From an uncultured virus (IMG/VR IMGVR_UViG_3300034082_002096) (taxonomy: Duplodnaviria; Heunggongvirae; Uroviricota; Caudoviricetes), in the IMG/VR virus record IMGVR_UViG_3300034082_002096: a stretch of 64,000 nt of DNA. One strand, 5' to 3'. Of the stretch, positions 3,191-64,000 are shown piece by piece. The notes under the pieces were generated by a model. The model was not told the DNA's origin and made no database searches. It saw only the letters and a program-made list of their open reading frames with translations. The translations under genes and the position numbers were made by a program. Position 1 is the first letter of the stretch, and each line of letters opens with the position of its first letter.

Positions 3191-3661
3191 TTATTCCAAT
3201 ACATACACAACTGGTGTAAGATGAATTAGTCGATGTTCGATAATAGCGGAAATTACTTCCCACGAACCATTGCCTAGTCCAGCACCAATTTGTGGCATTG
3301 CAATCTGTGTAATTCCATATGTTTCAGTAAATCGGTTAATTCTAGTCATAGCATCATCAATAGCATCATAACTAACATACCTTACATCTTCACGACCAAA
3401 AAATTCTTGTGTGATTGCATTCACAATGATTTTATAATTGGCAAAATCCTTTACTCTATCACCACATGGAACTACAACTAACTTACCAAGTTTAAGCCCA
3501 TTCGTATTATGTTCATTAACATAACGCTCATATGCTTTTGGATATTTTTCACGAATGATCTTTGCAATTCCACTTCCCATTACACCTTGGGCATTGCATC
3601 CATGCACAATAGTTTGAATTTCTGTTTGAAACAGATCGCCTTTTCGATATTCAATTTTCAT
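3191..3661 (-). CDS. macro domain (ADP-ribose binding/hydrolase) protein
   Basis: GDLF...IVHGCNAQGVMGSGIA...AMPQIGAGLGNGSW. Confidence 0.92.
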   Translation of the reverse strand: MKIEYRKGDLFQTEIQTIVHGCNAQGVMGSGIAKIIREKYPKAYERYVNEHNTNGLKLGKLVVVPCGDRVKDFANYKIIVNAITQEFFGREDVRYVSYDAIDDAMTRINRFTETYGITQIAMPQIGAGLGNGSWEVISAIIEHRLIHLTPVVYVLE

Positions 3662-4755: not shown

Positions 4756-5130
4756 TTATTCTTTTTGTAGAATTAATGCTTTCATTATTTCATAATCTTT
4801 CATTATTTCTGCAAGTTCTGGATATTTTTTTTGTAATTCTTTTTCTCTTGATTCTGCACGGATAACATCTTTATATTGTTCATATAATATATTAAATGAA
4901 GGACCATTTTTTATATCATTACGAATACTTGCTTCCAGTAATGAATCAATAAATTCTTTTTCTACTGTTATACGATATGAACTATGTATTGTCGCATATT
5001 TTTTATGTGAAGCAAGAGACGAAAATGTATCATCTACAAAGTTATAATCATATGTTTGCGGTTTACGTATTTCTTCTATATCATAGATACCAAATGTTCT
5101 AGATAATTTATCTAAATCGCTGCCATTCAT
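4756..5130 (-). CDS. hypothetical protein
   Basis: 124-aa ORF whose start overlaps the upstream stop. Confidence 0.65.
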   Translation of the reverse strand: MNGSDLDKLSRTFGIYDIEEIRKPQTYDYNFVDDTFSSLASHKKYATIHSSYRITVEKEFIDSLLEASIRNDIKNGPSFNILYEQYKDVIRAESREKELQKKYPELAEIMKDYEIMKALILQKE

Positions 5131-5717
5131 GTGTTATTATATCCTATACGAGAAAACCCAGTCATTTTTTTAATTTCAGTATGCCAATCTTTATCTTTGG
5201 TACTTATTCCATTTCCATAAATGTCAAAATACTTGACATGGGCAAACCCTTCTTCCACCGAAGGCACGACAAAGCTTTCCAGCATATTGTTAATAACATA
5301 TGCTGGAATGGTTTTCCCTTCACGATGTGCCAAACGATACTGCAATTCTTCTTCTTCTTTTTTGTTTTGTGGAGGAAGAACACAAACACAAGTAAGAAGA
5401 TGAGTTTTTTCCAATTTGTGGATAATTTTTTTACGCTTCTTATCACTCATATTGGTCTGATCCCAAATAATATTAACATTATTTGCAATTGCTTCTTTTA
5501 GTTTTTCATCCATGAACTGGGTTGCATACTTAATTTCTGCATCAAAGGTGGCATTATAAGTGCTGTTATTTTCTTTTGCAACAGTTTCAATATAAGAATC
5601 TGTGGAATAGATGAATGGATCAGACAACATCTTAGACAGCAATGAAATCATCGTGCTTTTACCACTAGCTGGCAAACCAACGAACACAATAGCAATAGGA
5701 GCAGGAGGTTTGGTCAT
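5127..5717 (-). CDS. P-loop kinase, polynucleotide-kinase-like (AAA_33)
   Basis: GLPASGKST Walker A, STD, IIWDQTN, and C-terminal PSVEEGF. Confidence 0.85.
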   Translation of the reverse strand: MTKPPAPIAIVFVGLPASGKSTMISLLSKMLSDPFIYSTDSYIETVAKENNSTYNATFDAEIKYATQFMDEKLKEAIANNVNIIWDQTNMSDKKRKKIIHKLEKTHLLTCVCVLPPQNKKEEEELQYRLAHREGKTIPAYVINNMLESFVVPSVEEGFAHVKYFDIYGNGISTKDKDWHTEIKKMTGFSRIGYNNT

Positions 5718-5914
5718 TATGTATTCCTTTATATGTGAATCACACACTATCATCAACGGTAACTGGAGTCAACTGCATAATAAACTATTGTTAGATCATT
5801 GTTTTATCAATTGTCATAATATGAATACTCCGATATTTACAGACGATCTTAAGTGGGTATTTCGAGGTTTCTGACTTTATCGGCTACTACAAACCTTTTT
5901 TCGATAGTATTCAT

Positions 5915-12901: not shown

Positions 12902-12978
12902 TGGTGGTCTAGGTGGGACTCGAACCCACGATCAATGATGTTAGGGCACCATCGCATTAGCCGCTATGCTACAAGACC
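12902..12978 (-). tRNA. tRNA with abnormal anticodon loop (CCT or CTA; identity unresolved)
   Basis: Normal D-arm, T-arm and CCA; anticodon arm ATGGT-GCCCTAAC-ATCAT (8-nt loop). Confidence 0.7.
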
Positions 12979-20688: not shown

Positions 20689-21131
20689 CTTGGATAATAT
20701 ACCATTTCTACTTCATCATAGCCTTCGTAATCGCCATGTTCAATTGCATCATCATCTAAAAACTCATCGTCAACAACAAACCCAAGACTACTATACCACT
20801 TAATTAGTTTAACAGTATCAGTAACATACTTTGGGTCTTTGGAGTAAGCTTTGGCAATCAAATGTAATCTTACATGATGTTTATCTGCAAGATTAGTTAG
20901 TATCTTCATAGCTTCTGTTCCCGCACCAGTTCTTGGTAATAATGATCTTATATCAGATATATGAATATCTTTATCATAAGCTGAAACTTCTATAGAAGCA
21001 TTTTTTAAAATACGTGATCTGCTATCAAATGGATGCTCTGTAGTTATTTTATCAATATCTGCCAAAAATGCAGTAGTATTATCACTTCTTCCGCTACCAA
21101 GCTTTATTCTTGTTACCTCAAATATTTTCAT
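20685..21131 (-). CDS. GNAT acetyltransferase-like protein, probably virion-packaged
   Basis: R.GAGT..M...LADKH...LIKWY..LGF; N-terminus MKIFE; TATAAATA at 21153-21160. Confidence 0.75.
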   Translation of the reverse strand: MKIFEVTRIKLGSGRSDNTTAFLADIDKITTEHPFDSRSRILKNASIEVSAYDKDIHISDIRSLLPRTGAGTEAMKILTNLADKHHVRLHLIAKAYSKDPKYVTDTVKLIKWYSSLGFVVDDEFLDDDAIEHGDYEGYDEVEMVYYPR

Positions 21132-21168
21132 AACTATCTCCAACTATAGTTATATTTATAAAAATATT

Positions 21169-21244
21169 TGGCAGGGGCAGCAGGGCTTGAACCCGCGACC
21201 TACGGTTTTGGAGACCGTCGCTCTACCAACTGAGCTATACCCCT
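21169..21244 (-). tRNA. tRNA-Trp(CCA)
   Basis: Anticodon arm ACGGT-CT CCA AA-ACCGT; GCCA end. Confidence 0.93.
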
Positions 21245-21247
21245 ATT

Positions 21248-21430
21248 ATAGACTTTATTATTGAAAGAACTCTATAGGGTAATTACTCCTATTCGGGGAC
21301 ATTGTTTGCAACCAATGTTTGATCCCAACTTTTGTGTTACAGAGTCGAACTGTCCCTGCCCCGCGAAAGGGGGCTATGCATCCGCTTACAACTTACACTA
21401 CTTGTCTGCTCTCTCAATAATAAAGTCTAT
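21248..21430 (-). ncRNA. ~180-nt RNA closed by a long terminal stem
   Basis: 17-bp IR ATAGACTTTATTATTGA/TCAATAATAAAGTCTAT; internal T-loop-like ACAG-TTCGACT-CTGT. Confidence 0.6.
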
Positions 21431-21516
21431 TATAATAAAACTTTATATTATGTAGTTCACGTTTCATATCCATAGTTTTATTGACATTACTATTTATATA
21501 AAACGTGAACTCTATG

Positions 21517-21589
21517 CTGGGGATGGAGGAATCGAACCTCCGTGTGTCAGGACCAAAGCCTGATGCCTTACCAACTTGGCTAATCCCCA
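21517..21589 (-). tRNA. tRNA-Gln(TTG), no encoded CCA
   Basis: Anticodon arm TCAGG-CT TTG GT-CCTGA. Confidence 0.9.
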
Positions 21590-21595
21590 ATAAAA

Positions 21596-21787
21596 CCATA
21601 TAAAAACACACTAGACCACTTATGCTACATGACCAAGGCCAAGGTAGGTGAACCAATCCTACATCTATCAGATACCACTCCGATCACATTAATCAAAAGT
21701 CGTCAACTACCTTTGATTGGGTTATATTGGTCTATTCAATTAATAATCGTTGACGACATATTATTAATCTAGTGTGCTTATATATGG
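21596..21787 (-). ncRNA. ~190-nt RNA closed by a long terminal stem
   Basis: Imperfect IR CCATATAAAAACACACTAGA / TCTAGTGTGCTTATATATGG; internal GTCGTCAAC/GTTGACGAC stem. Confidence 0.55.
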
Positions 21788-21908
21788 TGCCCCCACGACG
21801 ACTTGAACGCCGGACCCCCTGATTATGGAAATACACCTTGTGAACTTATCGTTAAATATTTCTCGTGTATTTTCAAATCAGGTGCTCTACCAACTGAGCT
21901 ATAAGGGC
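21785..21908 (-). tRNA. tRNA-Thr(TGT) interrupted by a 48-nt insert (21826-21873) within the anticodon
   Basis: Removing the insert gives a canonical 76-mer: GCCCTTATAGCTCAGTTGGTAGAGCACCTGATTTGTAATCAGGGGGTCCGGCGTTCAAGTCGTCGTGGGGGCACCA. Confidence 0.85.
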
Positions 21909-21926
21909 ATAAAAGTATTTATGTTT

Positions 21927-22112
21927 TCACATAATACCTTTTTCTTCCAAAAGTTTTTCATTGGTTTTTCCAACAACTGCTAAGATAAGTATTGCAAAAA
22001 CTCCAAATAAAAACCCACCAAGTGCCCAACCAATTTTATTACGACCACGTGACTCTGCCATTATTGCACCAATTATTGCAAAAATAACAGCAAATATTAA
22101 TATTAATTCCAT
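21927..22112 (-). CDS. small membrane protein
   Basis: A..RGRN..GW..GG..FG..A motif; two TM segments. Confidence 0.7.
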   Translation of the reverse strand: MELILIFAVIFAIIGAIMAESRGRNKIGWALGGFLFGVFAILILAVVGKTNEKLLEEKGIM

Positions 22113-22141
22113 AGTATCCCTTTCTGTAGGACTAAGTTAAG

Positions 22142-22278
22142 ACAGATTGTATTTTCTACTTTTTTAACCAGAAAATCGAAAACTGGTGTGGCATCGTAGA
22201 TTACACCAATACCGAAGTATTCCATAACCGGACGTTGATAGCCTGTGCTAAGTTTTATAGTTTGGCTGTATACAATCT
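22142..22278 (-). ncRNA. stem-closed CAGC-motif RNA (multi-hairpin payload)
   Basis: AGATTGTA-TACAGCCAA ... TACAATCT-GT; internal AATAC-TTCG-GTATT. Confidence 0.7.
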
Positions 22279-22288
22279 TAATTCGTTT

Positions 22289-22415
22289 ACTGGATCAACT
22301 TTTATACGGCGTCCTACCACTAGACGAACTGCCCATAATAATTATGGTGGGCAGTAGAGGAATCGAACCTCTGTTCACGGCTTGGAATGCAATTAATTGT
22401 TGCTGTAATGATCCA
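22289..22415 (-). ncRNA. stem-closed CAGC-motif RNA carrying a permuted tRNA
   Basis: TGGATCA-TTACAGCAA, TTCCAA, T-arm AGAGG-TTCGATT-CCTCT, ACTGCCCA-CCA-linker-TGGGCAGT, D-arm, TGATCCA-GT. Confidence 0.85.
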
Positions 22416-22618
22416 AAATTCTATTATACTGTTTGTCTAATTTTTTCTGCAACATGAGAAGGTTGAACACGCACTTCATAATCATCAATAACATAACCTA
22501 CTTCTGACTTATCCCATGCACCAACGCCTTTTACTTTGACGTGAGTTTTACCAATAACATATTCGTATTCTTTTTCGTCTACTGTAATCTTGCGGTAAGC
22601 CATAGTATTTCCCTTCTT

Positions 22619-23146
22619 TTAAAAATATTTATAAGTTATAAATTTTACTATTTCTAATATTCTATTTTTATCAACACCATATTTTCTACCAAGTGCCCTA
22701 CTTCCAAAATTTTTATCACTCTTGATATAATTTTTTCTAATATATTCTACATCTTCTTCTAATAATGCTCTACTATTATAGGATGCTTTCTTTTTTGAAA
22801 CTATATTATGTTCCATTAGACCATTGCGTAATGCGTGTTGCATATTTTCTTTTGGTGTAACCCATTCTAAATTCGAATAATGATTATTTATTTTATTTCC
22901 ATCAATATGATTTACTTCTATAAAATTGTTAACATTTTCTACAAAACATTTTGCTACTTCTCTATGAAGTCTAAAACATTTATTTGTTCCATTCCTTCCA
23001 CCTATTTTAGTGGATATTAGAACATATCCTGTTTTTGATATAGAAGATGTCAAAATCTTATTTGTTCGTAAAGAAAACAAATTTCCATGATCACTTATAA
23101 GAAATAAATCTTCATATCCTATAACTTTTTTCCAATTTTCATTCAT
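22619..23146 (-). CDS. NUMOD4-HNH homing endonuclease
   Basis: ENWK.V.GYE..F.ISD.G (NUMOD4); HREVA..F; VNHIDGNKINNHYSNLEWVT..EN..H. Confidence 0.92.
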   Translation of the reverse strand: MNENWKKVIGYEDLFLISDHGNLFSLRTNKILTSSISKTGYVLISTKIGGRNGTNKCFRLHREVAKCFVENVNNFIEVNHIDGNKINNHYSNLEWVTPKENMQHALRNGLMEHNIVSKKKASYNSRALLEEDVEYIRKNYIKSDKNFGSRALGRKYGVDKNRILEIVKFITYKYF

Positions 23147-23165
23147 ATTTCATTCTTTGTTTTAA

Positions 23166-23249
23166 TGGTAGCCGTACCCGGACTTGAACCGGGAAGCATA
23201 AAGCGTCAGATTTTAAGTCTGATGTGTTTACCAATTTCACCATACGGCC
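23166..23249 (-). tRNA. tRNA-Leu(TAA)
   Basis: Anticodon arm TCAGA-CT TAA AA-TCTGA; CCA. Confidence 0.92.
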
Positions 23250-23278
23250 ATCGTTAGTAACCTAATCTTTATAAGAAA

Positions 23279-23355
23279 TGGTGGCCCCAGAGCGACTTGA
23301 ACGCCCGACCCAGAGATTAGAAATCTCTTGCTCTATCCAACTGAGCTATGGAGCC
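23279..23355 (-). tRNA. tRNA-Arg(TCT)
   Basis: Anticodon arm AGAGA-TT TCT AA-TCTCT; A20 in the D-loop. Confidence 0.93.
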
Positions 23356-23363
23356 GTATTATA

Positions 23364-23425
23364 TCAGGATGATTGGTTGCTTTTTTGATTACAAGTCAAG
23401 TGCATTGATTTGCTGAAATCATCCT
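23364..23425 (-). ncRNA. stem-closed CAGC-motif RNA carrying a Thr(TGT) anticodon stem-loop
   Basis: AGGATGATT-TCAGCAAA ... TTGA-CT TGT AA-TCAA ... AATCATCCT-GA. Confidence 0.8.
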
Positions 23426-23480
23426 TATAACATTTAATGAGAATAACTAACAGTTAGTCTTATAAAATATTATAGTATTA

Positions 23481-23558
23481 TGGAGGCAGGGGAGGGATTC
23501 GAACCCCCGAAACAACGGATTTGCAATCCGCACCATTAGGCCACTCTGGCACCCTGCC
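23481..23558 (-). tRNA. tRNA-Cys(GCA)
   Basis: Anticodon arm GCGGA-TT GCA AA-TCCGT; TCCA end. Confidence 0.92.
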
Positions 23559-23574
23559 ATTTTAGTTTGTAGTT

Positions 23575-23651
23575 TGGTAGGAGATCAGGGAGTCGAACCC
23601 TAAATTCAGGTTTATGAGACCTGCGTGTTAAACCATTTACACCAATCTCCC
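23575..23651 (-). tRNA. tRNA-Met/Ile2(CAT)
   Basis: Anticodon arm CAGGT-CT CAT AA-ACCTG; CCA. Confidence 0.85.
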
Positions 23652-23670
23652 AAAAGTTTTATTTCTATAT

Positions 23671-23732
23671 TGTCAAAGAGCGATAGTTCGTTTCGTTAAG
23701 CTAGTTATACTTGATTCGCTTAGTGCTGTCAA
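23671..23732 (-). promoter_or_regulatory. GANTC-containing sigma70 promoter (23704-23732) plus boxA-like site (23671-23681)
   Basis: TTGACA-GCACTAAG-CGAATC-AAG-TATAAC, then GCTCTTTGACA. Confidence 0.75.
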
Positions 23733-23741
23733 GAACATTTT

Positions 23742-23818
23742 TGGTAGACCCTTTCGGACTTGAACCGAAATATTCAATCTTATGAGGATTGTTCATTCAC
23801 CAATTATGATAAAGGTCT
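23742..23818 (-). tRNA. tRNA-Met/Ile2(CAT)
   Basis: Anticodon arm CAATC-CT CAT AA-GATTG; CCA. Confidence 0.82.
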
Positions 23819-23886
23819 ACAAAGAATGTTCTTGTTTTCGTATTATCATACTAACTCATATTGAAGTTAGTGTCAAGAGGTATTTT

Positions 23887-23942
23887 ACAGGATCATCTTG
23901 GTTTTTTCAAATAAAAAATTTAAGATTTGCGGAACTGATCCT
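23887..23942 (-). ncRNA. stem-closed CCGC-motif RNA
   Basis: AGGATCA-GTTCCGCAAA ... TTAAA-TTTTTTA-TTTGA ... TGATCCT-GT. Confidence 0.75.
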
Positions 23943-23951
23943 AAGTATTAC

Positions 23952-24003
23952 ACAGAATAATTTTGTTTGTATTTGCGAACATTAATGTTGCTGAAATTAT
24001 TCT
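23952..24003 (-). ncRNA. stem-closed CAGC-motif RNA (short)
   Basis: AGAATAATT-TCAGCAAC ... AATTATTCT-GT. Confidence 0.7.
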
Positions 24004-24016
24004 TAGAATTTTTAAT

Positions 24017-24091
24017 TGGAGCGGGTAGTGGGAATCAAACCCACTTCATTAGCTTGGAAGGCTAAGGCAACAATCAATATACCATACCCGC
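24017..24091 (-). tRNA. tRNA-Gly(TCC), second and atypical copy
   Basis: Same acceptor and anticodon arm as the 11427 copy; D-loop lacks GG; T-loop TTTGATT. Confidence 0.85.
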
Positions 24092-24311
24092 AATTTGCCC
24101 ACCATTTTTGGTTCATAATAAAAATGGTGGAAAAGTAATTTTCATTATGCTAGGATTCGAACCTAGACCATAGTGCTACTATGGAACCGATACAACTACT
24201 AATCACTTCTATTTAATAGCAGGGGCAACCGTCATAGTTTGCACTACGCTGCCGTTGTTATCCCCCGCCCGTGTTCATACCGAGATATGAACAATTTTTT
24301 ATAACATTTTG

Positions 24312-24385
24312 CTCTGGCGGTTGGGGTCGAACCAACGACATTCAGATTAACAATCTGACGCAACTACCAACTGTGCTACGCCAGA
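24312..24385 (-). tRNA. tRNA-Asn(GTT), no CCA, acceptor stem extended by flanking IR
   Basis: Anticodon arm TCAGA-TT GTT AA-TCTGA; flanks TATAACATTTTGC/GCAAAATGTTATA. Confidence 0.88.
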
Positions 24386-24400
24386 GCAAAATGTTATATT

Positions 24401-24460
24401 ACAGGATCATTTGTTTTTCAAACCAAAATTGAATTTTTATAACTTTGCGGAACTGATCCT
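24401..24460 (-). ncRNA. stem-closed CCGC-motif RNA carrying a Gln(TTG) anticodon stem-loop
   Basis: AGGATCA-GTTCCGCAAA ... TTCAA-TT TTG GT-TTGAA ... TGATCCT-GT. Confidence 0.8.
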
Positions 24461-24524
24461 TAACTTTTGTGATAGATTACTCTATCAAATTCTTGCGGTT
24501 TACAGGTTTATCGCCCTACGCTAG

Positions 24525-24639
24525 TAATCTGTTTTCATCTGTGCCTTAACTCGTTTATTCATAAACGAACAGGCTATTCCACGTTAAGTAGGATTTGGCT
24601 AAACACCAATTTTTACCACACACAGATGAAAACAGATTA
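24525..24639. ncRNA. RNA closed by a 19-bp perfect inverted repeat
   Basis: TAATCTGTTTTCATCTGTG / CACAGATGAAAACAGATTA. Confidence 0.55.
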
Positions 24640-24755
24640 GCCAACGATACGATAAATCGTATCTCACAGTCATTACAACTGTGTGGCTATCTATTATAAA
24701 AGCCCATCGCCGTTTCAGCGTTCCTTTCGGAGCATTCACGTAGGGCTTAACCAAA

Positions 24756-24914
24756 TTTTCAAAGAGCGTTTTTATCTTATGTTCGTATCTTACTACGATT
24801 CGTTTTGTTTGTCAAGAACTTTTTTCATCATTCTCAACGTTTTTTTGGACAACTCTGAATTTCTTCTTTGCTTTTCGATGCTTAAACTATAACCGATTCG
24901 GTTAGTATTGTCAA
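24756..24914 (-). promoter_or_regulatory. tandem GANTC-containing sigma70 promoters (24787-24815, 24886-24914) plus boxA-like site (24756-24767), heading the tRNA region
   Basis: TTGACA-N7-CGAATC-N4-TAAGAT; TTGACA-N8-CGAATC-N3-TATAGT; GCTCTTTGAAAA. Confidence 0.8.
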
Positions 24915-25001
24915 GCGTTTCTTTTAGTTTGTAGTTTATTTAGGGATTTTATTTAGTTGTTACTACTTAAAATATCAAATGGTAACAACTTTTTTATATT
25001 A

Positions 25002-33778: not shown

Positions 33779-34183
33779 TCAATATAAATTTAATTTTTTA
33801 AGAATCATCTTGATCATAGGGTGTTCACGATCAGATGTATATACATATGCACATGTATCAACTGGGATCAAATGCATAATTTTTCCATCCCTAACAGGAT
33901 AAGATGGATCATGAACAATACCAGCAATAAACGATTTTGATAGAATTTCTACACAATCACGCATTTCTTGTTCTGTAACACCAAGAACAATAGTAGTTCC
34001 GAACCCTTGATCAGTATGTGATTCCCAGAATGAGAAATCCTCAATAGTAACTTTATCTGTAATTTTTGTCATTACATGATGCTTGGCAGCATTAGATGCA
34101 TGTGCAGCTTGGGCACATGCTTTTCCTGCGGTCATTGACTCCATGTCGTTTCGCATCAGAATATATAGTGTTTCTTTAGACAT
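33779..34183 (-). CDS. peptidyl-tRNA hydrolase, PTH2 type
   Basis: LYILMR.D...M..GKA.AQAAHA motif. Confidence 0.8.
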   Translation of the reverse strand: MSKETLYILMRNDMESMTAGKACAQAAHASNAAKHHVMTKITDKVTIEDFSFWESHTDQGFGTTIVLGVTEQEMRDCVEILSKSFIAGIVHDPSYPVRDGKIMHLIPVDTCAYVYTSDREHPMIKMILKKLNLY

Positions 34184-34206
34184 ATTTTTCTCCTTAGTTT
34201 TTGTGT

Positions 34207-35457
34207 TCACTTCTTTGCTTCTGATGCTGCTGCAATTCGTGCTTTCAGCAAACCTTGTTTGATTTTGTCTGCATTTGTTTCGCCATTTGGAAAAACGTTA
34301 GCAAACTTAACACCATTTACTGCTTTCCACACAGTATACAACATATCCAATGGTTGCAAGCTGTTATTTTCACTACCAAGCCGACCACGTTCATCGCACA
34401 CACCTACACGATACAGCACATCAACAGTTTCTGGATCATTCCAAGAACCCATATCCATAAACATATGGACAAAAGTTTTTGGATTTAGTGTGTCCAACTT
34501 GTGCATTGACATATGATAACGTGTTGCTTTCATTGCACGATCACGCATTTTCGTAGGAACAGTCAACCGATTGCAGAAATTTTCTACAACAGGAACACCA
34601 TTAACATCATGCCCATAATGACGTGGAAAGTTTTCTTTTTTCGTCAATCCTTTTCCAAAATCATGAACAAGTGCAGCCAAACGGCTTTCCAAATCATAAT
34701 CATGCAATGCAGATTGTGTCAATACCAGCATAGTATGTTCGTATGCATTTCCTTCTGGATGCCATTTGCGGCTTTCCATTGCACTGCACAGTGAATATAC
34801 TTCTGGAAACAATACATGCAATGCATCACATTCCAACAGTGTATCAAAGAACAACCGAGGAAATGGTTCCATCAATGCACGAGAAAGTTCTTTCCAAACA
34901 CGTTCAGCTTGCAGTTCTCCCAATACACCTTTTTTAGCCATATCATGAACTAAGTTTTTGGTTTCACTTGCAACACTCCAATCTGCACCAAACCTTGCAC
35001 GAAAACGAGCAAGACGCAATACACGAACAGGGTCTTCACTAAATGCATTAGAAGTATGACGCAGTACTTTTGCAGTCATATCATCCTTACCACCGTAAGG
35101 GTCAAAGACCGCATAATGTCCTTCATCGCCAGACACAAAGAATTCTGTATCTTCCATGCGTTCCATTGATATACTATTGATAGTCAGATCACGACGCCCC
35201 AAATCTTCTTCCAGAGTTACATCAACTCCAAATTCACTTTCGAAACCAAGATAGCCAACGCCAGTTTTCTTTTCACGACGAGCCAATGCATATTCTTCAC
35301 CATCTTTCAGAAAGACAGGAAAATCTGCACCAACTTGTGTAAAGCCATTTGCCAACATTTCTTCCACCGTAGAACCAACTACAACATAGTCATGATCTTT
35401 TGGCGTAACACCCATGAGCATGTCACGCACTGCACCACCTACGAGAAATTTTTTCAT
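34207..35457 (-). CDS. cca: multifunctional CCA-adding tRNA nucleotidyltransferase with HD domain
   Basis: LVGGAVRD, DHDYVV, EYALAR.E, DL.RRDLTIN, EDPVRVLR, ERVWKE, HPE...H and HDFGK motifs. Confidence 0.96.
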   Translation of the reverse strand: MKKFLVGGAVRDMLMGVTPKDHDYVVVGSTVEEMLANGFTQVGADFPVFLKDGEEYALARREKKTGVGYLGFESEFGVDVTLEEDLGRRDLTINSISMERMEDTEFFVSGDEGHYAVFDPYGGKDDMTAKVLRHTSNAFSEDPVRVLRLARFRARFGADWSVASETKNLVHDMAKKGVLGELQAERVWKELSRALMEPFPRLFFDTLLECDALHVLFPEVYSLCSAMESRKWHPEGNAYEHTMLVLTQSALHDYDLESRLAALVHDFGKGLTKKENFPRHYGHDVNGVPVVENFCNRLTVPTKMRDRAMKATRYHMSMHKLDTLNPKTFVHMFMDMGSWNDPETVDVLYRVGVCDERGRLGSENNSLQPLDMLYTVWKAVNGVKFANVFPNGETNADKIKQGLLKARIAAASEAKK

Positions 35458-36215
35458 TTGTCGATTCCTTATCTGTTGACTATACATAACATATTGACAG
35501 CATCATGTCAACAACTACTTCATGCTTATTTCACAGCATGGATTATTAGAATGGATAATTAGACTCTATGTCAAAAACATATGTTACTTCTTGTTTAGTA
35601 GTCATTTTGTTCCAAAATTCATATTCAGCTTTTGCTCTTGTTACAATAGCAATCTCTTCGGCAGTAAAATCGTCAGTAAATTCTAATACAGAATAAGTTC
35701 CATAAGTATCATCCAAATAAGTTGTTAGTTTACCGATGATATGCAATAAATCATTTTCGTTCATTTCTAACGTCCTCACTAGCAGATTGTAGCAATAGTC
35801 GTTCTTCCATATCAATCCATTTGCTAGGAATATGATGCCTGCTTAGAAAGTCAATTCCTTCACAATCACCAACATGATTGATATATTTTCCAACAATTTT
35901 CCAAAGCTGTTCTTTGGTAACAGAATGTTTGTTCATAGTAATTTCCATTTTCGGTGTATGGTTTGTTTCATATGCGTAAAGAAGTTTTAGTGAACCATCA
36001 CGACGAACCCGATACAAATAAATTGCATTTTCCGAAAGCATATCAATATATGTATTTGCTTCTTTTCTTGAGCAAAATGTCAAAATACGCTTTACAAAAT
36101 TATCATTTAGATAATGGACTTCATATTTATGGACTGGCATATTGTTTCTCGCGTGGTTAGATTAATCCTATTAATAATCATACAGAATGAAAATCATCGT
36201 GTCAAGTGGATAATG

Positions 36216-44305: not shown

Positions 44306-45340
44306 TTACTCATTCTTAAGCAACCACTTGTTAGAAATTCCTTTATAAGTGATAGTATTATCAGTTGTACATTTGAATACCAAACCTTCACGTTCAGTCC
44401 CATTGATAACACTTTTTCCTTCTGCAAATGCGATAATTTCGGCTACATTAGCAAAATCATTAATATCCATTTCTTCTGCAATAATAGGAGCATGAAGTAG
44501 TCCCAACGCTTCGCAAATTTCTTTACGTTTTGTAGGATTCATATATCCGTGATTTTCAATATCGTAAATATTGAATACCCGCAGTTCTGGTGGAATTTTA
44601 AATTGCCCACTTTGAACGCTTTGCCCAATAATCTCACCTTGAATTGAAATATTTAAATTAAGTGCTTCCACTTTATTGATAATATCATATTTTCGTGCAA
44701 TTTGCCAGTAAAGATTTCCTTCTGTTTCTTCAAGGCTTAAATTACGTGAGCAAACATGAGATTCATAATGATCATCATTTGGTTTGAAGCGAACATAAGT
44801 AAATGACGTTCCATCTAGCTTTTCGGTGACTTCAAACTTTAGACCACGATCTTTCCAACCTTGAATACGATTGGTGAGATTTTGAATACGCTCTGCATCC
44901 GTCTTTGGAGAAATATGCGTTGGGAAGTTACCTTTAGCAACACCACTCAGTTGTGCAGGAAGCGGTTTTTCCCACTTTTGAATCCCAAGAAGTTCAGTAA
45001 CATCCCAACCCTCAATCGCATCCCATGTAGTATCAATTTGAATGCAAGTCAAAGGCAACAGAAGTCCTTGTGAAACCACTCCACGCATTTTCTTACTACG
45101 TAGACGCTCACCTTTTACTCCATTATATTCACGCGGCTCTTTATCCCCAGAAAGGAATGCTGCCAATTCATGTGGAATCCAAGAATCAATTTCGAAATAT
45201 ACAGCAAGATCATTTGCATGATATTCACCTTTTTTCACAATTACATGCCATCCGCCAATAACTACGATTTCAATTAAGTCTGCCCCTTCGATGGGACGAA
45301 TTTCGTCAACACGACGAATACTTGCTAGTTTACGTTCCAT
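44306..45340 (-). CDS. RNA ligase, Rnl2 / DRB0094 family
   Basis: MERKLAS, ADLIE, YFEIDSW, RGVVSQG, TEKLDGTS, SRN, QGE, EGLVFK and K.ISNKWLLK motifs. Confidence 0.93.
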   Translation of the reverse strand: MERKLASIRRVDEIRPIEGADLIEIVVIGGWHVIVKKGEYHANDLAVYFEIDSWIPHELAAFLSGDKEPREYNGVKGERLRSKKMRGVVSQGLLLPLTCIQIDTTWDAIEGWDVTELLGIQKWEKPLPAQLSGVAKGNFPTHISPKTDAERIQNLTNRIQGWKDRGLKFEVTEKLDGTSFTYVRFKPNDDHYESHVCSRNLSLEETEGNLYWQIARKYDIINKVEALNLNISIQGEIIGQSVQSGQFKIPPELRVFNIYDIENHGYMNPTKRKEICEALGLLHAPIIAEEMDINDFANVAEIIAFAEGKSVINGTEREGLVFKCTTDNTITYKGISNKWLLKNE

Positions 45341-46747: not shown

Positions 46748-47293
46748 TCAAGTCCTAAAATAATTCTCGACACGAGTAGCATTCAATTGCGGAACTAGTG
46801 TTAAAACGATCCAGTTAGCCATGCCTTGTCCATCATGTTCTTCTTTCACCATTACTGCACATTTTTCATTTTTAAAATACCCAACAAAATAGTCCCATAT
46901 CTCTTGGAATTCTGCATTTCTTTTTTGTGCAGAACGAATCCATTCTTGTAGGGTATAATCTGTTATTTTTGTATATGGAACTTTATTATTTTCAATTTGT
47001 TCAACAAATTTTTCTTTAATCTTATTAATCAAATCAGTTTTTTCTTGTTTTGCTTTACGAATTTTTTCTAAGTCAGCATTAGCTTGATCTCCAATGTTTT
47101 TAATTTTTGCATCTTCCAATTCGTCTAATGTTTTTTTTAATTTATTTCCAAGCGTATCGTCAGTCTGGGCTTTTACATGATTATACATTTTTATACTTCT
47201 CCATATTTCATGATTATACATTTTTATATTTTTCCATAATGGTTTGTAGATCAGAAAGAATACGATCAATTGGTACTTGAACTTTAACAGCAT
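46748..47293 (-). CDS. hypothetical protein (true start probably at one of the duplicated MYNH sites)
   Basis: EEHDGQG...W motif; 33-bp duplication at the start region. Confidence 0.65.
   Translation of the reverse strand: MLLKFKYQLIVFFLIYKPLWKNIKMYNHEIWRSIKMYNHVKAQTDDTLGNKLKKTLDELEDAKIKNIGDQANADLEKIRKAKQEKTDLINKIKEKFVEQIENNKVPYTKITDYTLQEWIRSAQKRNAEFQEIWDYFVGYFKNEKCAVMVKEEHDGQGMANWIVLTLVPQLNATRVENYFRT
47176..47238. repeat. 33-bp tandem duplication
   Basis: CATGATTATACATTTTTATA(C/T)TT(C/T)TCCATA x2. Confidence 0.9.
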
Positions 47294-48110
47294 CTGTTAA
47301 TGAACCATAGTGATGTTCTAGACAATTCATCAATAATTCTTTTATTTTATCTTCGTTGGGTGAATGTTGTAACTCTGATTTTGTATAAAGTTCTTCTAGA
47401 TGTTTTTCTTTATCGTCAAACCAACTACGTAGCTTTTCTTCACTCCAATCACCACGGCGAATTGATTTAAGAATTTCACGATTGCGTTCAATATCTAAAT
47501 CATGCTCTAGAAGGATTTGTTCTCCTTCTAGTGCCAACCTAACAACATGATACGCAAACTTAACATCATAGCCAAATTCTTCAATAGAAGCGTTACGTTT
47601 TGGATTCGATGAGTTTGCCTTGGTTTCAATTTTATGTAATTGGGCATAAGCATATCCGCGAAATTTGTGATATGAACCTTTATGCAAAAACATATGGCGA
47701 TTATCACGAATCATTTGTGCAACAGGTGTGCAGAATAAAACACATCGCTGTGGAACAAAGAGGCTGTCCAACATATTTGGATTGTTTTCCATACATAGTT
47801 GAATATATTTAACAATAGAATAGATCGTCAAATCATATTCTTGTCTAGTAGACGCATCTTTGATATGATGTTCTTGATATTGTTCAAATCGTTGAATTTG
47901 TTGACCAAACCCACTGATTTCTCCACGCAAATGTGGAAATATATCTTCCTTGGGTGGAATACAAAATCCGTAAATATCCATGTCAGATGTATCATTCGAC
48001 ACTGCGTATGCAGTTGAACCCATGATAACTTCATAGTGCATATTTTGTGGCAACCATTTTGGTGGGTGTGCCAATCCTTTTTGTGCTAATGTAACAACTC
48101 TGCCAGCCAT
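47214..48110 (-). CDS. DNA polymerase beta-superfamily nucleotidyltransferase
   Basis: GS.AY......SDMDIYG, NPN..D.LF, F.GYA..Q and YD.K.AYH.VRL motifs. Confidence 0.88.
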   Translation of the reverse strand: MAGRVVTLAQKGLAHPPKWLPQNMHYEVIMGSTAYAVSNDTSDMDIYGFCIPPKEDIFPHLRGEISGFGQQIQRFEQYQEHHIKDASTRQEYDLTIYSIVKYIQLCMENNPNMLDSLFVPQRCVLFCTPVAQMIRDNRHMFLHKGSYHKFRGYAYAQLHKIETKANSSNPKRNASIEEFGYDVKFAYHVVRLALEGEQILLEHDLDIERNREILKSIRRGDWSEEKLRSWFDDKEKHLEELYTKSELQHSPNEDKIKELLMNCLEHHYGSLTDAVKVQVPIDRILSDLQTIMEKYKNV

Positions 48111-53079: not shown

Positions 53080-54528
53080 TTACAAAATCAATTTAGCACG
53101 ATCACGAATTTCTTCTAAACTGTCATCTATCAGAAGTTTGCCGTTAAGATATACAGAACGAAGAAGATTAGTAGCACCAAATTTAGTAGCATAATCTTCT
53201 GATACTGTAATAACAGATGGACCTTTAGTAATACCTGTTTCGGTGATTTCAACAGAATTTGTATTATCAATTAGGACAAGACGACCTTTTTTAGAAGTTT
53301 TGCCTTTATCGGTAATTGGGTCTTTGTATACATCAACCCATTCTCCATTAATCAACGCCGCAGAACATTTCATAGCAAACTTTTGATCATCACGTTGTGG
53401 TGCTTGTAACAATGCCCCACCCATGCCAAATGCTACGTTATCTGCAGAAAATCCATTTTGTTTTAGACTTTCTAGAATATCTGTTACTGTGTCGATATTG
53501 ATACCATCGCCTTGGATGATACGAACAACATTCAATACTTTATAGCCTTTGTCGTTAATTGTAGAACCAAATGTTTTGTCCAGAAGTTTTGCAACTTTAG
53601 TTACAACTTCTACTGGATCGCCAGAGTCTGGACGAATTACAATAGTTGCACCACTGTCTATTACTTCTTGGCGTAGTTCACCACCCCATAGATTTTCAAC
53701 AGCATTAAAAATATCATAAGAATCAGATACTACAGCTACGATACTTCCCGGTTTTGCAAAGTTACGCAGCATATTGCGATATGCTTGTACTTCATTTTCA
53801 CGGCCCCACGAAGTAATAGTAGAATGTTCAGCAGCAGGAATACTAAACCCTGCCATACGAGTATTGTAATATTTCCTATGGCCTACAATAGCACCAATAG
53901 TATCAGTTCCCATAAAGTTTACAAGATGGGCCATACCACCAATTTTTGCAGATTCTTTACTGGAAGCACCACGTGCACCAAAATCATGCAGTTTGAAGTT
54001 GATCAACGAAATATCACCAGTGTCCATTAGGTATTTTGCAATTACTTTTTTGATTTCTCGTGAAGTAGTAGCAACTGTTACTGGATACCAAATTGCACGA
54101 AGTAGTGCAGTTTCCAAGAAAGTGGTTAATGGAAAGCAAATTGGATCAGTATTTTCGATAGTTACCATAACATTGTGAACAGGAATTACTGTCCCTTCTG
54201 GAATAGCTTTGATTTCAACAGGCATAAAGCCATCATGAACTTTTACGATATGTTCCCACATTGCACGATTGAATGGTTCCCCATGTTCAGTCCAAATTTC
54301 TTCTGCAAAATCAATATCTTCCATAGTGATTCTTTTTAGCAGATATTCTTTGATGAACATTTGAATACCAAAGAATACGGTTTCATCATATTTGCCACCC
54401 CGGCTTTCGATGTAACTATATACTTTTGTTGTGCCTGTTGGGTATTGGACCGTCATTGATCCTTTATAGCTATCGCTGTCTACAATGATGCTATCAAAAA
54501 TAGCATTGTTATTAAAAAAATCAAACAT
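53080..54528 (-). CDS. nadV: nicotinamide phosphoribosyltransferase
   Basis: DSYK, YIESRGG, HDFGARG, GTDT, SIPAAEHS, VSDSYD, IRPDSGDP, GMGGALLQ and KDPITD.GK.SKKG motifs. Confidence 0.95.
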   Translation of the reverse strand: MFDFFNNNAIFDSIIVDSDSYKGSMTVQYPTGTTKVYSYIESRGGKYDETVFFGIQMFIKEYLLKRITMEDIDFAEEIWTEHGEPFNRAMWEHIVKVHDGFMPVEIKAIPEGTVIPVHNVMVTIENTDPICFPLTTFLETALLRAIWYPVTVATTSREIKKVIAKYLMDTGDISLINFKLHDFGARGASSKESAKIGGMAHLVNFMGTDTIGAIVGHRKYYNTRMAGFSIPAAEHSTITSWGRENEVQAYRNMLRNFAKPGSIVAVVSDSYDIFNAVENLWGGELRQEVIDSGATIVIRPDSGDPVEVVTKVAKLLDKTFGSTINDKGYKVLNVVRIIQGDGINIDTVTDILESLKQNGFSADNVAFGMGGALLQAPQRDDQKFAMKCSAALINGEWVDVYKDPITDKGKTSKKGRLVLIDNTNSVEITETGITKGPSVITVSEDYATKFGATNLLRSVYLNGKLLIDDSLEEIRDRAKLIL

Positions 54529-59475: not shown

Positions 59476-60306
59476 TCAACATGAATATGCAACAGGCCAA
59501 TTTCTTTTGTGGCGAGTTTTTTCATACTGTGCGACAATTTTAGCAACTACTTCATCACTAACAGATTTTCCTTCTAGAAAATCATCTAGATCATCATATG
59601 AAAAACCAAGAGCAACTTCGTCTGCAAGTTGTGGGCGAATTTCTTCTAAGTCAGCAGTTGGTGTCTTCGAATAAAGTTTTTCTGGAACCCCAATTGCTTC
59701 TGCTAATTTACGAACTTGCCTTTTGCTAAGACCATTTAATACAGTGATATCACATGCTTGATCGCCCCATTTGGTATAAAATGCAGGAACTAATTCAGAA
59801 TTATGATCAGTTCCTACTACAAGACAATTCCGCAAACCTGCAATTTCATATTGAGCAAGCATACGCATTCGTGCTTTGACGTTTCCTTTGTGGAAGTCAA
59901 GTAATCCACGATCAGAACATAAACCAGTCAATTGTGAATGAATAGAGTTAGTTGCAAGTTCGATACCAACTGTTATACGATAGTCTGGATTAATAAACTT
60001 CAATGCAGATTGTGCATCATCTTCGTCTTTTTGAATATCATAAGGAAGTCGAACTGCATAAAAATATGCAGCATATCCTTCATTCTGTAATTCAATGCAA
60101 GCAATCTGACATAGTTTTCCGGCAGTGGTAGAATCTACTCCACCACTAATACCTAAAACATATCCATTTAATTTTGAAGATTTTAGGTATTCTTTTAGAT
60201 AATCAATACGAAGTCTTGCTTCTTGTTTAAAGTCTATTGTTTCTGTTTCTCGCACTCCGTGAAGTGCGAGAATTTCCTGTGTTATTGTATTCATAATCTT
60301 ATCCAA
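59476..60306 (-). CDS. nadE: NH3-dependent NAD+ synthetase
   Basis: LGISGGVDS, RLPY..Q.DE.D, GNVKARMRM, GTDH, FYTKWGD and PTADLE motifs. Confidence 0.95.
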   Translation of the reverse strand: MDKIMNTITQEILALHGVRETETIDFKQEARLRIDYLKEYLKSSKLNGYVLGISGGVDSTTAGKLCQIACIELQNEGYAAYFYAVRLPYDIQKDEDDAQSALKFINPDYRITVGIELATNSIHSQLTGLCSDRGLLDFHKGNVKARMRMLAQYEIAGLRNCLVVGTDHNSELVPAFYTKWGDQACDITVLNGLSKRQVRKLAEAIGVPEKLYSKTPTADLEEIRPQLADEVALGFSYDDLDDFLEGKSVSDEVVAKIVAQYEKTRHKRNWPVAYSC

Positions 60307-60315
60307 TCTTCTAAA

Positions 60316-61359
60316 TTAATATGTTGGAATAAAACGTTTGATGATATGGTAATGGTCAAATGCCATCATTTCGCTAGTAACATCACTTAGTTTAACCCAT
60401 TCTGCATGTTTTGCATCATCCGAACCTTTTACTTTTGGCAACTTTTCATCGGGATATCCCAAATCAATATGGAAACCATGTGTAATAACACGTCCACGAG
60501 GATCGCGGTCAGGATGATCAAAAACTTCTATCGCTTTGATAGAACCTTTAAGAACCTTGTCAGGAACTTTTAGTTTTGTTTCTTCACGAAGTTCTTTAAT
60601 CATATTTTCTACGATAAATTTACCTTTATCAAGATACCCACCAGGGAGTGCCCAACAATCTTTGAATGGGAAACCTCCGCGTTTGATTAGAAGAACATAT
60701 CCACTTTGTGTAATAACCGCATCGGTAGTAACAAATACAGAAGGAAAGTTAAATCCCTTCATTTGTGACTTTTCACGGTATTCTTTGATTTGGTTATATT
60801 CTGCCTTCAACGATGGAAACCAATCGCCTTTAAGAAGAATACTATCTAATTCATGCCGTGTAGCAAGATGCATTTTATCTGCACTCATGAAAAACCGTTC
60901 ATCAGAAAAAAGGTCTTCACGAATATCAGTTGCATTAATGCCATCGACATTTGCAACTTCAACATGATCCCGCCAATCTGGAAAAATGTTTAGATAATAT
61001 GAAGAACTATCTTTGGAATGACCAATCAATCCAGCTTTTGTGCCAGTTTTAATTCCATTTACTACCGATTGAACCGCAGAAACCCAAGCATTATCGTCGT
61101 ATGGATAATCCATTACGCCTACGATCTTGATTCTGCTTGTATGAATATCAGAACGCAATGAGTAGGCAGATTCAATCATTGCCTTACGTTCTTGAAATGT
61201 AAATGGATTTTTTGTGCTACGTGGTTGAAAACTTGAACCCACGACTAGAACAACTTCTTTTGCTTGTTCTAGAGCGGCATCAATTACCGCTTTGTGTCCA
61301 TTGTGGAAAGGTTGAAACCTTCCACAAAAAACTAATGTATCATATTTTTCTTTTGCCAT
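60316..61359 (-). CDS. nadM: bifunctional NMN adenylyltransferase / Nudix ADP-ribose pyrophosphatase
   Basis: GRFQPFHNGH, KNPFT..ER, GH.KD.SS.YL, WALPGG...EL.EET, R..RGR.ITH and DDA motifs. Confidence 0.93.
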   Translation of the reverse strand: MAKEKYDTLVFCGRFQPFHNGHKAVIDAALEQAKEVVLVVGSSFQPRSTKNPFTFQERKAMIESAYSLRSDIHTSRIKIVGVMDYPYDDNAWVSAVQSVVNGIKTGTKAGLIGHSKDSSSYYLNIFPDWRDHVEVANVDGINATDIREDLFSDERFFMSADKMHLATRHELDSILLKGDWFPSLKAEYNQIKEYREKSQMKGFNFPSVFVTTDAVITQSGYVLLIKRGGFPFKDCWALPGGYLDKGKFIVENMIKELREETKLKVPDKVLKGSIKAIEVFDHPDRDPRGRVITHGFHIDLGYPDEKLPKVKGSDDAKHAEWVKLSDVTSEMMAFDHYHIIKRFIPTY

Positions 61360-62806: not shown

Positions 62807-63538
62807 TTACTTATTCATAGCATCCTTGATTGCTTGTGTCAAGTCAGAAACCTTAACAAGCAAATCATTCAGTTCATTTCGTCTTGCAATTTCTTCATCA
62901 ATTATGTCTTGTGCCCATTGAATAGTATAATTAATTCCAATAATAACATCATCCCAAAACTGGACATGATCTTTATCGCTTTTTTTATTTTTCTCAATAT
63001 TATTAATAAATGATTTCATAAAATTGAGAGAACCTTCGGCAGCTTTTACTTTCTCACATTTATAAAGACTTATACTTTCACGCAAAATGTTTTCAAAGTT
63101 TTTCCTAGCTTCTTCTGGGTAACGCAATGCATCTAGATCAGCCCTGATTATAGGAGAAAAACTAGAATAAATTACACGATGATCTTGTGTTGCCATGATC
63201 AACGCAACTACATGCCCTTCATTTAGAGCATTTAAATTGCATCCGCTATACATTTCTTTCATATCTGAAAACATAATTGCACTACGATATTCTTTTTCTG
63301 GTTTTTCGTCATATACAATATCATGAAACAAAACTGCCCAATCTAGGCATTCGTCATAAGGATGATTGATAGAATCCAAATACTCATACATTCGCTCAAT
63401 ATGTGAAAGATTGTGGTAGAACAGACCGCGTTCACAAAAATTATCAAGAATTGTTTGAATAGCTTTTTGTGCTAGTTCTGTATGAGTTATTTTAGACCAT
63501 TTAAACAATTTCATCTTCCTTTTTAATAAATTCTTCAC
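62807..63538 (-). CDS. HD-domain phosphohydrolase
   Basis: YHNLSHI, FHDIVYD, E..SA, I.AT..H and DLD.L motifs. Confidence 0.88.
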   Translation of the reverse strand: MKNLLKRKMKLFKWSKITHTELAQKAIQTILDNFCERGLFYHNLSHIERMYEYLDSINHPYDECLDWAVLFHDIVYDEKPEKEYRSAIMFSDMKEMYSGCNLNALNEGHVVALIMATQDHRVIYSSFSPIIRADLDALRYPEEARKNFENILRESISLYKCEKVKAAEGSLNFMKSFINNIEKNKKSDKDHVQFWDDVIIGINYTIQWAQDIIDEEIARRNELNDLLVKVSDLTQAIKDAMNK

Positions 63539-64000
63539 GTTCTTTGTGTGTCATCGTTGAACAAAAATCAGTAGGATCAATTTGTTTAATTTTTGTTCTA
63601 ATGGCAGGACCATATTCTGTGGCAACTTCTGTTGAAACTCGTTTGTAAATAGTCCCATATTGGTAATTATATTGAAGATCATCCCATTTGGTATTAAAAT
63701 TCACAATAAGATCAGCAATCATTTCTTGCTGATTTTTATTCTTCATTCTTGAATGACCAGCAGTCCACCGATACAAACAGCTTACGCTATTCTTTCGACA
63801 GTCATGAATACGCCATAGCAGCGTATTTGCAGCTTCTGTAAGGCTAGAAACAGCCCAACTACGACAATCAAAAAATGCAAGCTTTTCATAAGCAACATGC
63901 TCATTTGAGTGCATATAATTATTGAAATACGCAGTAGCCATTGATGCCAAAATCGAATTGATTTTGCTTACTTTTCCACCAAAGATATGTTCATCACCAG
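63501..64000 (-). CDS. tRNA-His guanylyltransferase (Thg1-like), C-terminal part; extends beyond the window
   Basis: FGGK..KI.S..AS, FDCR, WR..DC.KNSV and W.......GT motifs. Confidence 0.88.
   Translation of the reverse strand, partial: GDEHIFGGKVSKINSILASMATAYFNNYMHSNEHVAYEKLAFFDCRSWAVSSLTEAANTLLWRIHDCRKNSVSCLYRWTAGHSRMKNKNQQEMIADLIVNFNTKWDDLQYNYQYGTIYKRVSTEVATEYGPAIRTKIKQIDPTDFCSTMTHKEREEFIKKEDEIV

Follow-up and report, generated by a model that had tools for sequence, protein, structure and literature searches.

The window analyzed here, the entire 64,000-nucleotide stretch of the uncultured virus record IMGVR_UViG_3300034082_002096 (Caudoviricetes), represents an AT-rich (33% G+C) lake-water phage in which the minus strand is the coding strand for all genes, including rIIA and rIIB. 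The window contains 25 tRNA genes detected by ARAGORN and 2 more with insertions in the anticodon loop. In the tRNA array, on the minus strand and co-oriented with the tRNA genes, lie four elements of 53-63 nt, which we denote E1 to E4. All four belong to a conserved family of non-coding RNAs of about 60 nt that occupy tRNA slots and combine a scaffold with an exchangeable head (hereafter, handle RNAs). Anticodon arms are displayed in the heads of these RNAs.

E1, E2 and E3 are built to a common plan. Within a closing stem (P1), A-GGAUSA/USAUCC-U, the single-stranded motif on the 5' side (GUUCCGCAAA or UUUCAGCAAA) comes first, and the inner hairpin follows with an A-rich spacer on either side of it; the elements end in C-U-G-U. 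In E3 (24401-24461, minus strand), located 16 nt upstream of tRNA-Asn, the 5' strand of P1, AGGAUCA (24454-24460), pairs with UGAUCCU (24403-24409), the single-stranded motif GUUCCGCAAA occupies positions 24444-24453, and the inner hairpin UUCAA-UUUUGGU-UUGAA (24417-24433; loop 24422-24428, triplet UUG 24424-24426) mimics a Gln(UUG)-type anticodon arm. The resemblance of this loop to that of the tRNA-Gln in the window (CTTTGGT), pointed out in the sequence-only reading, extends to 6 of the 7 positions; the loop is identical to TTTTGGT of the tRNA-Gln in the related record G002, and is also found on another stem, CUUUU/AAAAG. E1 (23364-23426, minus strand), located 9 nt upstream of tRNA-Arg, has its P1 at 23419-23425/23366-23372 and the motif UUUCAGCAAA at 23409-23418, and carries a Thr(UGU) anticodon-arm mimic, UUGA-CUUGUAA-UCAA (23385-23399; loop 23389-23395, triplet UGU 23391-23393), that includes the sequence U36-A-A-U-C-A41. 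The identification of this arm as that of a Thr tRNA is borne out by its core, all 15 nucleotides of which are identical to the arm core of an actual tRNA-Thr(UGU) encoded on the related contig L077. The GCA trinucleotide in E1, previously taken for a remnant of a D-stem, belongs instead to an outer helix of the element itself (TGC/GCA) that is kept in relatives (L029, L057, L066).

E2 (23887-23943, minus strand; P1 23936-23942/23889-23895, motif 23926-23935) additionally contains a helix P2, UCUU (23922-23925)/AAGA (23896-23899), and an inner hairpin at 23902-23918, the stem of which is homopolymeric, so that its register is ambiguous. The loop TTTTTTA, on which the assignment of E2 as TTT-like was based, reflects just one of the registers possible, and that assignment is not supported. 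Because homologues with unambiguous stems (L007, L066) back the reading A-U-UUG-R-A, the head of E2 is probably better read as Gln-like, AU-UUG-AA, with A32 in place of C32; a further homologue is in G002. E4 (23952-24004, minus strand) is a divergent copy without an anticodon arm; its P1, AGAAUAA (23997-24003)/UUAUUCU (23954-23960), departs from the consensus through compensatory changes (GAAUAA/UUAUUC) and is followed by the motif UUUCAGCAA (23988-23996). E1 (CU-UGU-AA) and E3 (UU-UUG-GU) have the features of an anticodon stem-loop, namely a 5-bp stem, a 7-nt loop, Y32-U33, a purine at 37 and a loop equal to that of a real tRNA; E2 cannot be assigned firmly, and E4 lacks the arm.

The three elements singled out in the sequence-only reading, E1-E3, are clearly above chance. 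The pair of motifs AGGATSA-N35-60-TSATCCT is matched three times in the window compared to 0.04 expected, and three matches were reached in none of 100 shuffled sequences; when at most 3 mismatches are tolerated, the 17-mer AGGATCAGTTCCGCAAA similarly yields three matches compared to 0.11 expected. A covariance model made from relatives (R1) scores E3, E2 and E1 at 62.3, 61.2 and 52.3 bits, respectively, and detected the fourth copy, E4, at 33.3 bits (E value 2.3e-5).

The exact 17-mer is present in 15 IMG/VR loci, including 10 with the matching 3' strand, 1 cut by the contig end and 4 apparent chance matches in coding sequences. With a degenerate pattern, 17 loci were retrieved from viruses, at least 121 from metagenomes and 26 from species genomes; a pattern that combines N56-86 with ATSATCCTG matched nothing. 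In the scan of 185,579 species genomes, genuine-looking elements were confined to three short contigs of metagenome-assembled genomes (L160, L161, L179), with none in isolate genomes. The 110 unique pattern matches were filtered for a complementary S:S pair, an upstream A and an inner G+C content below 36%, leaving 66 members, 50-70 nt in length with the mode at 60-61 nt; the 44 matches removed are mainly G+C-rich and coding-like. The R1 search produced 114 matches, 97 of them distinct, from 98 sources, all in phage-type tRNA arrays; 37 of the 97 lie outside the original search pattern, and there are 2-5 copies in each of five large records searched. The family is easily annotated with R1 and fills 'empty' slots of many phage tRNA arrays. 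Four of the five large carrier records, with G+C contents of 27-43%, have few proteins in common with the window. A tblastn comparison of 112 window open reading frames (ORFs) with four related records showed that what is widely shared is the general tRNA toolkit alone, namely the CCA-adding enzyme, Thg1-like enzyme, kinase and Macro-domain protein. All 265 tRNA calls around the members are on the same strand as the element and none on the opposite strand; a tRNA ends within 8 nt upstream of 23 of the 66 members, and a tRNA starts within 11 nt downstream of 25. No R1 match at E value of at most 0.01 was detected in four cultured phages (the best hit scored 20.5 bits, E value 0.06), which, together with the tRNA region of T4, is where the model was run among cultured phages, and a BLAST search of 50,697 phage records with two of the elements returned noise only; thus, no cultivable carrier emerged from the model scan of four genomes and the BLAST search, R1 itself not having been run over the entire phage collection. 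The family is absent from Rfam 15, and full-text literature searches turned up no earlier description of it.

The scaffold comprises the 7-bp closing stem, the motif N-U-U-C-M-G-C-A-A-A directly 3' of the 5' strand of this stem, and the 3' C-U-G-U. In the model-fitted alignment of the 97 distinct sequences, compensatory changes are observed in 6 of the 7 pairs of P1, with 99.9% of the pairs formed, and in all 5 pairs of the head stem, with 87.9% formed; in an independent MAFFT alignment, 4 of the 5 head stem pairs covary. In the same set, the motif is nearly invariant (U10 in 97 sequences, C12 in 96, G14 in 97, C15 in 97, A16 in 97 and A17 in 95), and so are most of the terminal positions (G3 in 97, C147 in 97, U148 in 96, G149 in 97 and U150 in 72), the mature ends themselves being predicted. 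The P2 helix, considered as a family-wide feature, was rejected: 46.7% of its pairs are formed, with no consistent single register.

The variable heads are where the mimicry resides. A hairpin with a stem of at least 5 bp and a 7-nt loop is present in 42 of the 66 members, whereas 200 shuffles gave 13.9 on average and never more than 21; 7 nt is the only loop size that stands out against the shuffles (by the model-fitted count, a figure biased by the model, 66 of the 97 sequences have 7-nt loops). In the set of 30 distinct loops, the first position is occupied by C in 50%, the second by U in 83%, the sixth by a purine in 70% and the seventh by A in 60%, against the background of the inner regions of 47% A, 15% C, 8.5% G and 30% T, that is, 56% purine. 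These preferences are more pronounced in the 284 real tRNAs of the loci concerned, with C (60%) or U (39%) at position 1, U at position 2 in 99%, A (85%) or G (12%) at position 6 and A at position 7 in 80%. The loops of the homologues are therefore not random, and the U33/R37 bias anticipated in the sequence-only reading is present. Furthermore, out of 32 distinct loops, 10 reproduce a real anticodon loop exactly, compared to 0.54 (maximum 4) in permuted controls, and identical loops recur on differing stems: CTTTTAA on five, CTTGTAA and CTTATTC on three each, and CCGTTAA, CTCAAAA, CTGCTAA, CTTCTAA and TTTTGGT on two each. The exact preservation of loops while the stems vary, together with the excess of real anticodon loops, argues for selection on the loop itself. 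The triplets observed are UUU, UGU, GUU, GAU, UAU, CAU, UCU, GCU, UGA, CAA, GUA and UUG. The context U36-AAUC-A41 is found in 5 of the 97 elements, E1 among them, and solely with the triplets UUU, UGU and GUU. The five near-identical element pairs show 6 differences, 1 of which is in the triplet, too few to judge whether the triplet changes rapidly. In one orthologous pair (L009:1068-1125 and L018:995-1052), the single base that differs is the middle base of the triplet (UUU in one, UGU in the other).

Some of the heads are more elaborate. Those of L010 and L207:3809 consist of an anticodon arm, a variable loop, a T arm, an acceptor stem sealed by a loop and a D arm, that is, a permuted sealed tRNA. 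The heads of L018:2208, L215:11431 and L029:712 have the YrlA topology, L016:264 and L031:1043 combine an anticodon arm with a T arm, and L053 and L206:15629 combine a T arm with an acceptor hairpin.

Tentatively, and with somewhat less than even confidence, we propose that the E1-E4 family are candidate decoys for host nucleases that read anticodon arms, such as PARIS AriB-, PrrC- or Cas13-like enzymes. The handle RNAs would be co-transcribed with the tRNAs and freed by the tRNA-processing enzymes that act on their neighbors; the scaffold would confer stability or bind some protein partner, and the head would be a competitor of real tRNAs for anticodon arm-reading factors, the likeliest of which would be host defense nucleases that cut tRNAs in the anticodon arm, so that the RNAs might serve as sacrificial or inhibitory decoys beside the phage tRNAs and RNA-repair genes. 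Three lines of evidence make tRNA-cleaving nucleases the best candidates. The window encodes an RNA and tRNA toolkit (RNA ligase, RlaP nucleotidyltransferase, CCA-adding enzyme, PNK-like kinase, Thg1-like enzyme and PTH2); isolated anticodon stem-loops can serve as nuclease substrates, according to the available part of PMC13692257; and the E1-type arms have the AriB context along with the three AriB triplets, given that AriB is described as cleaving the Lys(UUU), Thr(UGU) and Asn(GUU) tRNAs at U36-AAUC|A41 (available sections of PMC12409363).

Several observations weigh against this proposal or against the mimicry on which it builds. The canonical hairpin is wanting in 24 of the 66 members, and E4 has none at all; loops ending in UUC or UCC form a subclass with no tRNA match; and in 9 of the 40 distinct 7-nt loops of the model-fitted set, the second position is not U. 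Rich in A and U, the head hairpins are weakly stable, with energies of about -0.5 to -3 kcal/mol in most members, and the folding energy of the whole elements is modest (z-scores from -1.3 to -2.0); folding energy by itself is weak evidence, and the support for the structure comes from covariation. The most common head type is Gln(UUG)-like, and since the same sections of PMC12409363 report no detectable AriB cleavage of tRNA-Gln(UUG) in vitro, PARIS is excluded as the general target. As for the U36-AAUCA41 match, it is to be expected whenever the arm of a Lys, Thr or Asn tRNA is copied: the 13 of 353 real tRNAs with this sequence are all of these types. A decoy requires just a stable stem, and therefore the near-invariant motif and the CUGU end are unexplained by this function. 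Finally, two metatranscriptomic and two doubtful 'RNA' runs mapped to positions 21000-25000 yielded mostly cross-matches to tRNAs, with the exact contigs elsewhere in the array and the elements not clearly covered. It is because arms of Lys, Thr or Asn tRNAs might simply have been copied, the Gln heads are not AriB targets, the motif is unexplained and the RNA runs do not clearly cover the elements that we advance the decoy function tentatively.

The conservation of the scaffold sequence far beyond the needs of a closing stem would be accommodated if the handle RNAs were tethers, in the manner of Y RNAs that tether Ro60 to effectors: the scaffold would bind an RNA quality-control or repair protein of the host or the phage, and the head would recruit a tRNA-binding enzyme or substrate. 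In support of such a role, YrlA-type heads occur in the same handle in L010, L018:2208, L215:11431 and L029:712, and the Class I RNAs of Dictyostelids, which share the architecture of the handle RNAs, are directly bound by an RRM protein, Rnp1A (CIBP), as described in the available part of PMC7919456. The search for a partner was negative. The TROVE/Ro60 domain (PF05731) was found in none of 10 related phage records, including one 100% complete genome of 264 kb, the RRM domain (PF00076) in none of 5 related records, and neither domain in the 89 window ORFs scanned; furthermore, Pfam searches with these 89 ORFs, 16 of which were also compared with PHROGs, revealed no dedicated partner protein. 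The handle also lacks the sequence GNCGAAN0-1G of YrlA, as given in the accessible text of PMC4201824. We therefore regard a tether as unlikely.

Alternatively, the elements could be punctuation in the array transcript, that is, signals for cutting or insulation analogous to the t-elements of plant mitochondria, the likeness to anticodon arms being a relic of descent from tRNAs. The placement of the elements in tRNA slots, with spacers of 4-11 nt, is compatible with this possibility, and the closing stem, with its 7 bp and the invariant G after it, is reminiscent of an acceptor stem with its discriminator base. A relic would hardly be expected to preserve loops exactly while the stems change or to match real anticodon loops well above the permuted controls, and in many arrays, tRNAs are directly adjacent without such elements, so we consider punctuation distinctly improbable. 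Roughly as improbable, in our view, if not slightly more so, is a sponge or regulator for enzymes that modify the anticodon loop or for aminoacyl-tRNA synthetases. The operator of thrS carries anticodon-arm mimics, and the mimicry statistics would serve such a function equally well, as would the prevalence of triplets from A/U-rich anticodons. This A/U bias is, however, also expected from the composition (47% A and 30% T); no linked enzyme gene is present, and literature searching found no phage precedent.

Armless mitochondrial tRNAs resemble the handle RNAs in layout, and a function of the latter as minimal, CCA-tailed adaptors could be considered given their size of 50-70 nt, the 7-bp terminal stem, unpaired G, anticodon arm and connectors, as well as the CCA-adding enzyme encoded by the phage. 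This function is highly improbable: CCA follows the stem in none of the 66 members compared to 194 of the 228 neighboring tRNAs, a single terminal stem serves all the 'anticodons', and in the long members, the handle has an entire sealed tRNA body inside it. As for tRNA identity itself (RF00005), it was rejected: the elements have no D or T arms, and neither ARAGORN nor the Rfam tRNA model calls them. A DNA-level element, be it a target site for a homing endonuclease, a site of recombination or a miniature mobile element, for which the inverted-repeat ends and the HNH-NUMOD4 gene in the array (22619-23146) could speak, has next to no chance of being the explanation in view of the strict co-orientation with tRNAs, the asymmetry of the conserved motif and the two helices held paired by compensatory changes.

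The genes in the vicinity of the elements include tRNA-Asn (24311-24385), tRNA-Gly (24017-24091), two tRNA-Met (23742-23818 and 23575-23651), tRNA-Cys (23481-23558) and tRNA-Arg (23279-23355), all on the minus strand and detected by both ARAGORN and the Rfam tRNA model. The best promoter-like site upstream of E3, TTGACA-17-TATAGT, is at 24886-24914 (minus strand), with further sites at 24787-24815 and 23848-23876; the total number of such sites is not above that in shuffled sequences, so that they are no more than consistent with minus-strand transcription. The HNH-NUMOD4 gene, on the minus strand as well, encodes a homing endonuclease and lies inside the tRNA array, as does segB in T4. Long non-coding stretches separate some of the tRNA genes (21245-21515, 21590-21787, 22114-22330, 24092-24310 and 24470-24950) and contain no Rfam family above the threshold; other array-borne RNAs may be encoded there. 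Metatranscriptome contigs match the array without mismatches at 22196-22381, 22390-22540, 21604-21754 and 22229-22379. The RNA toolkit is itself part of a dense set of tRNA/RNA-repair and NAD-related genes in the window that also encompasses SIR2, Macro, NAMPT, NAD synthase and NMNAT-Nudix (442-1128, 3191-3661, 5127-5756, 33779-35487, 44306-45340, 47214-48110, 53080-54528, 59476-61359 and 63501-63950).

Several of the tRNA genes are unusual. Two (21785-21908 and 2350-2460, both on the minus strand) carry inserts within the anticodon loop or close to it, 48 nt long in the first and 37 nt in the second, much below the size of group I introns. The first of these was considered in the sequence-only reading to be the only Thr tRNA of the window, with a disrupted anticodon. 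ARAGORN with the -i option calls it Ser(tga) and places the 48-nt insert at position 37, and UGU can be read in another register; therefore, the claim of a disrupted Thr tRNA is not established. In the tRNA gene at 12902-12978 (minus strand), the anticodon loop reported by ARAGORN has 6 nt and the 'anticodon' two bases, and the Rfam tRNA score is 50.7 bits. In the related phage records G007 and G010, ARAGORN detected an amber-reading tRNA (anticodon CTA), which may indicate stop codon reassignment or suppression.

Comparison of the handle RNAs with known phage RNAs starts from T4, where rnaC and rnaD (species 1 and 2 RNAs) are likewise annotated as 'small, stable RNA' in and beside the tRNA cluster and which shares rIIA and rIIB with the phage studied here. 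A relationship with rnaC and rnaD was rejected because R1 matches neither; within the 5-kb T4 region, its top-scoring match (11.8 bits, E value 0.16) lies elsewhere.

The handle RNAs resemble YrlA (RF02553), which also combines an end-to-end stem with a tRNA-mimicking module, as far as the accessible text of Chen et al. 2014 (PMC4201824) describes it, and the similarity extends, in the long members, to a T arm and a D arm housed within the handle together with an acceptor stem that is sealed; L010 matches positions 23-87 of the YrlA model at 37 bits, with the cut-off at 69. The handle itself does not qualify as a YrlA stem because it reads AGGAUSA-NUUCMGCAAA and has no counterpart of the putative Ro60 site, GNCGAAN0-1G, indicated in that text. 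Unlike YrlA, E1-E4 contain no tRNA body and carry only what YrlA lacks, the anticodon loop. Separately, a full-length YrlA-like RNA (model positions 1-114; 31.5 bits, below the cut-off) with its own stem and no handle was detected at L029:5867-5972, in a 318-kb phage record without TROVE.

The closest architectural parallel is with the Class I RNAs (Kjellin et al. 2021, PMC7919456), which the available sections of that paper report as unique to social amoebas and of unknown function. These RNAs are about 60 nt long (range about 42-65) and are closed by a terminal stem of 6 bp in which compensatory changes maintain the pairing; beside the 5' stem strand, a motif of 11 unpaired nucleotides has near-invariant U3, C6, C9, A10 and A11, and the 5' G and 3' CUGU are invariant, whereas the middle is variable (PMC7919456). 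The phage RNAs are similar in length and have a terminal stem that is also kept by pairing rather than by sequence. All five near-invariant positions of the Class I motif C-C-U-U-A-C-A-G-C-A-A are matched by the phage motif N-U-U-C-M-G-C-A-A-A, which aligns to CUUACAGCAA with one gap, being usually 1 nt shorter, and the 5' G and 3' CUGU are kept in the phage family, with the caveat that its mature ends are predicted. Of the Rfam families, Dicty_Class_I_RNA (RF01414) alone matches the short elements along the whole of its model: it does so in 11 places, all exactly on elements, with scores of 33.1, 33.1 and 23.9 bits and eight more at 21.0-24.8 bits, all under the gathering cut-off of 41.5 bits. 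Among the 20 loci scanned, RF01414 matched just 8 of about 30 elements, and in the Rfam scan of the window, it matched none of E1-E4. The two groups differ in that the phage copies lie in tRNA arrays, 1-11 nt from tRNA genes, rather than being stand-alone genes with a DUSE promoter about 60 nt upstream (no search for DUSE was made), and in that the phage heads mimic anticodon arms. The handle RNAs are the first family outside Dictyostelia that shares the Class I architecture, a likeness that may reflect either homology or convergence.

A broader, doubtful scenario joins this likeness to the decoy function. The handle RNAs might be a modular phage RNA platform in which one scaffold, an ancient fold kept as the Class I RNAs in Dictyostelium, presents exchangeable anticodon arms or sealed tRNA bodies that are retargeted by single triplet-base changes to bait or block tRNA-cleaving immune nucleases. 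If so, a tRNA-related role would be indicated for the Class I RNAs.

Cleavage of tRNAs is a common form of bacterial immunity, to which the known answers of phages are replacement tRNAs and RNA repair, and phage RNAs that neutralize RNA-recognizing immune effectors are familiar in the form of RNA anti-CRISPRs. The T5 tRNAs that act against PARIS likewise exemplify a phage RNA that neutralizes such an effector, a function that is putative for the handle RNAs, among which the E1-type arms have the AriB context (available parts of PMC12409363 and PMC11464382). The difference is that, according to the same sources, T5 supplies functional tRNAs that resist cleavage, whereas the handle elements cannot decode and retain the cleavable context. 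If the handle RNAs are indeed decoys, they would represent a third, RNA-based answer of phages to tRNA cleavage, namely small RNAs that show the nuclease the targeted arm alone.

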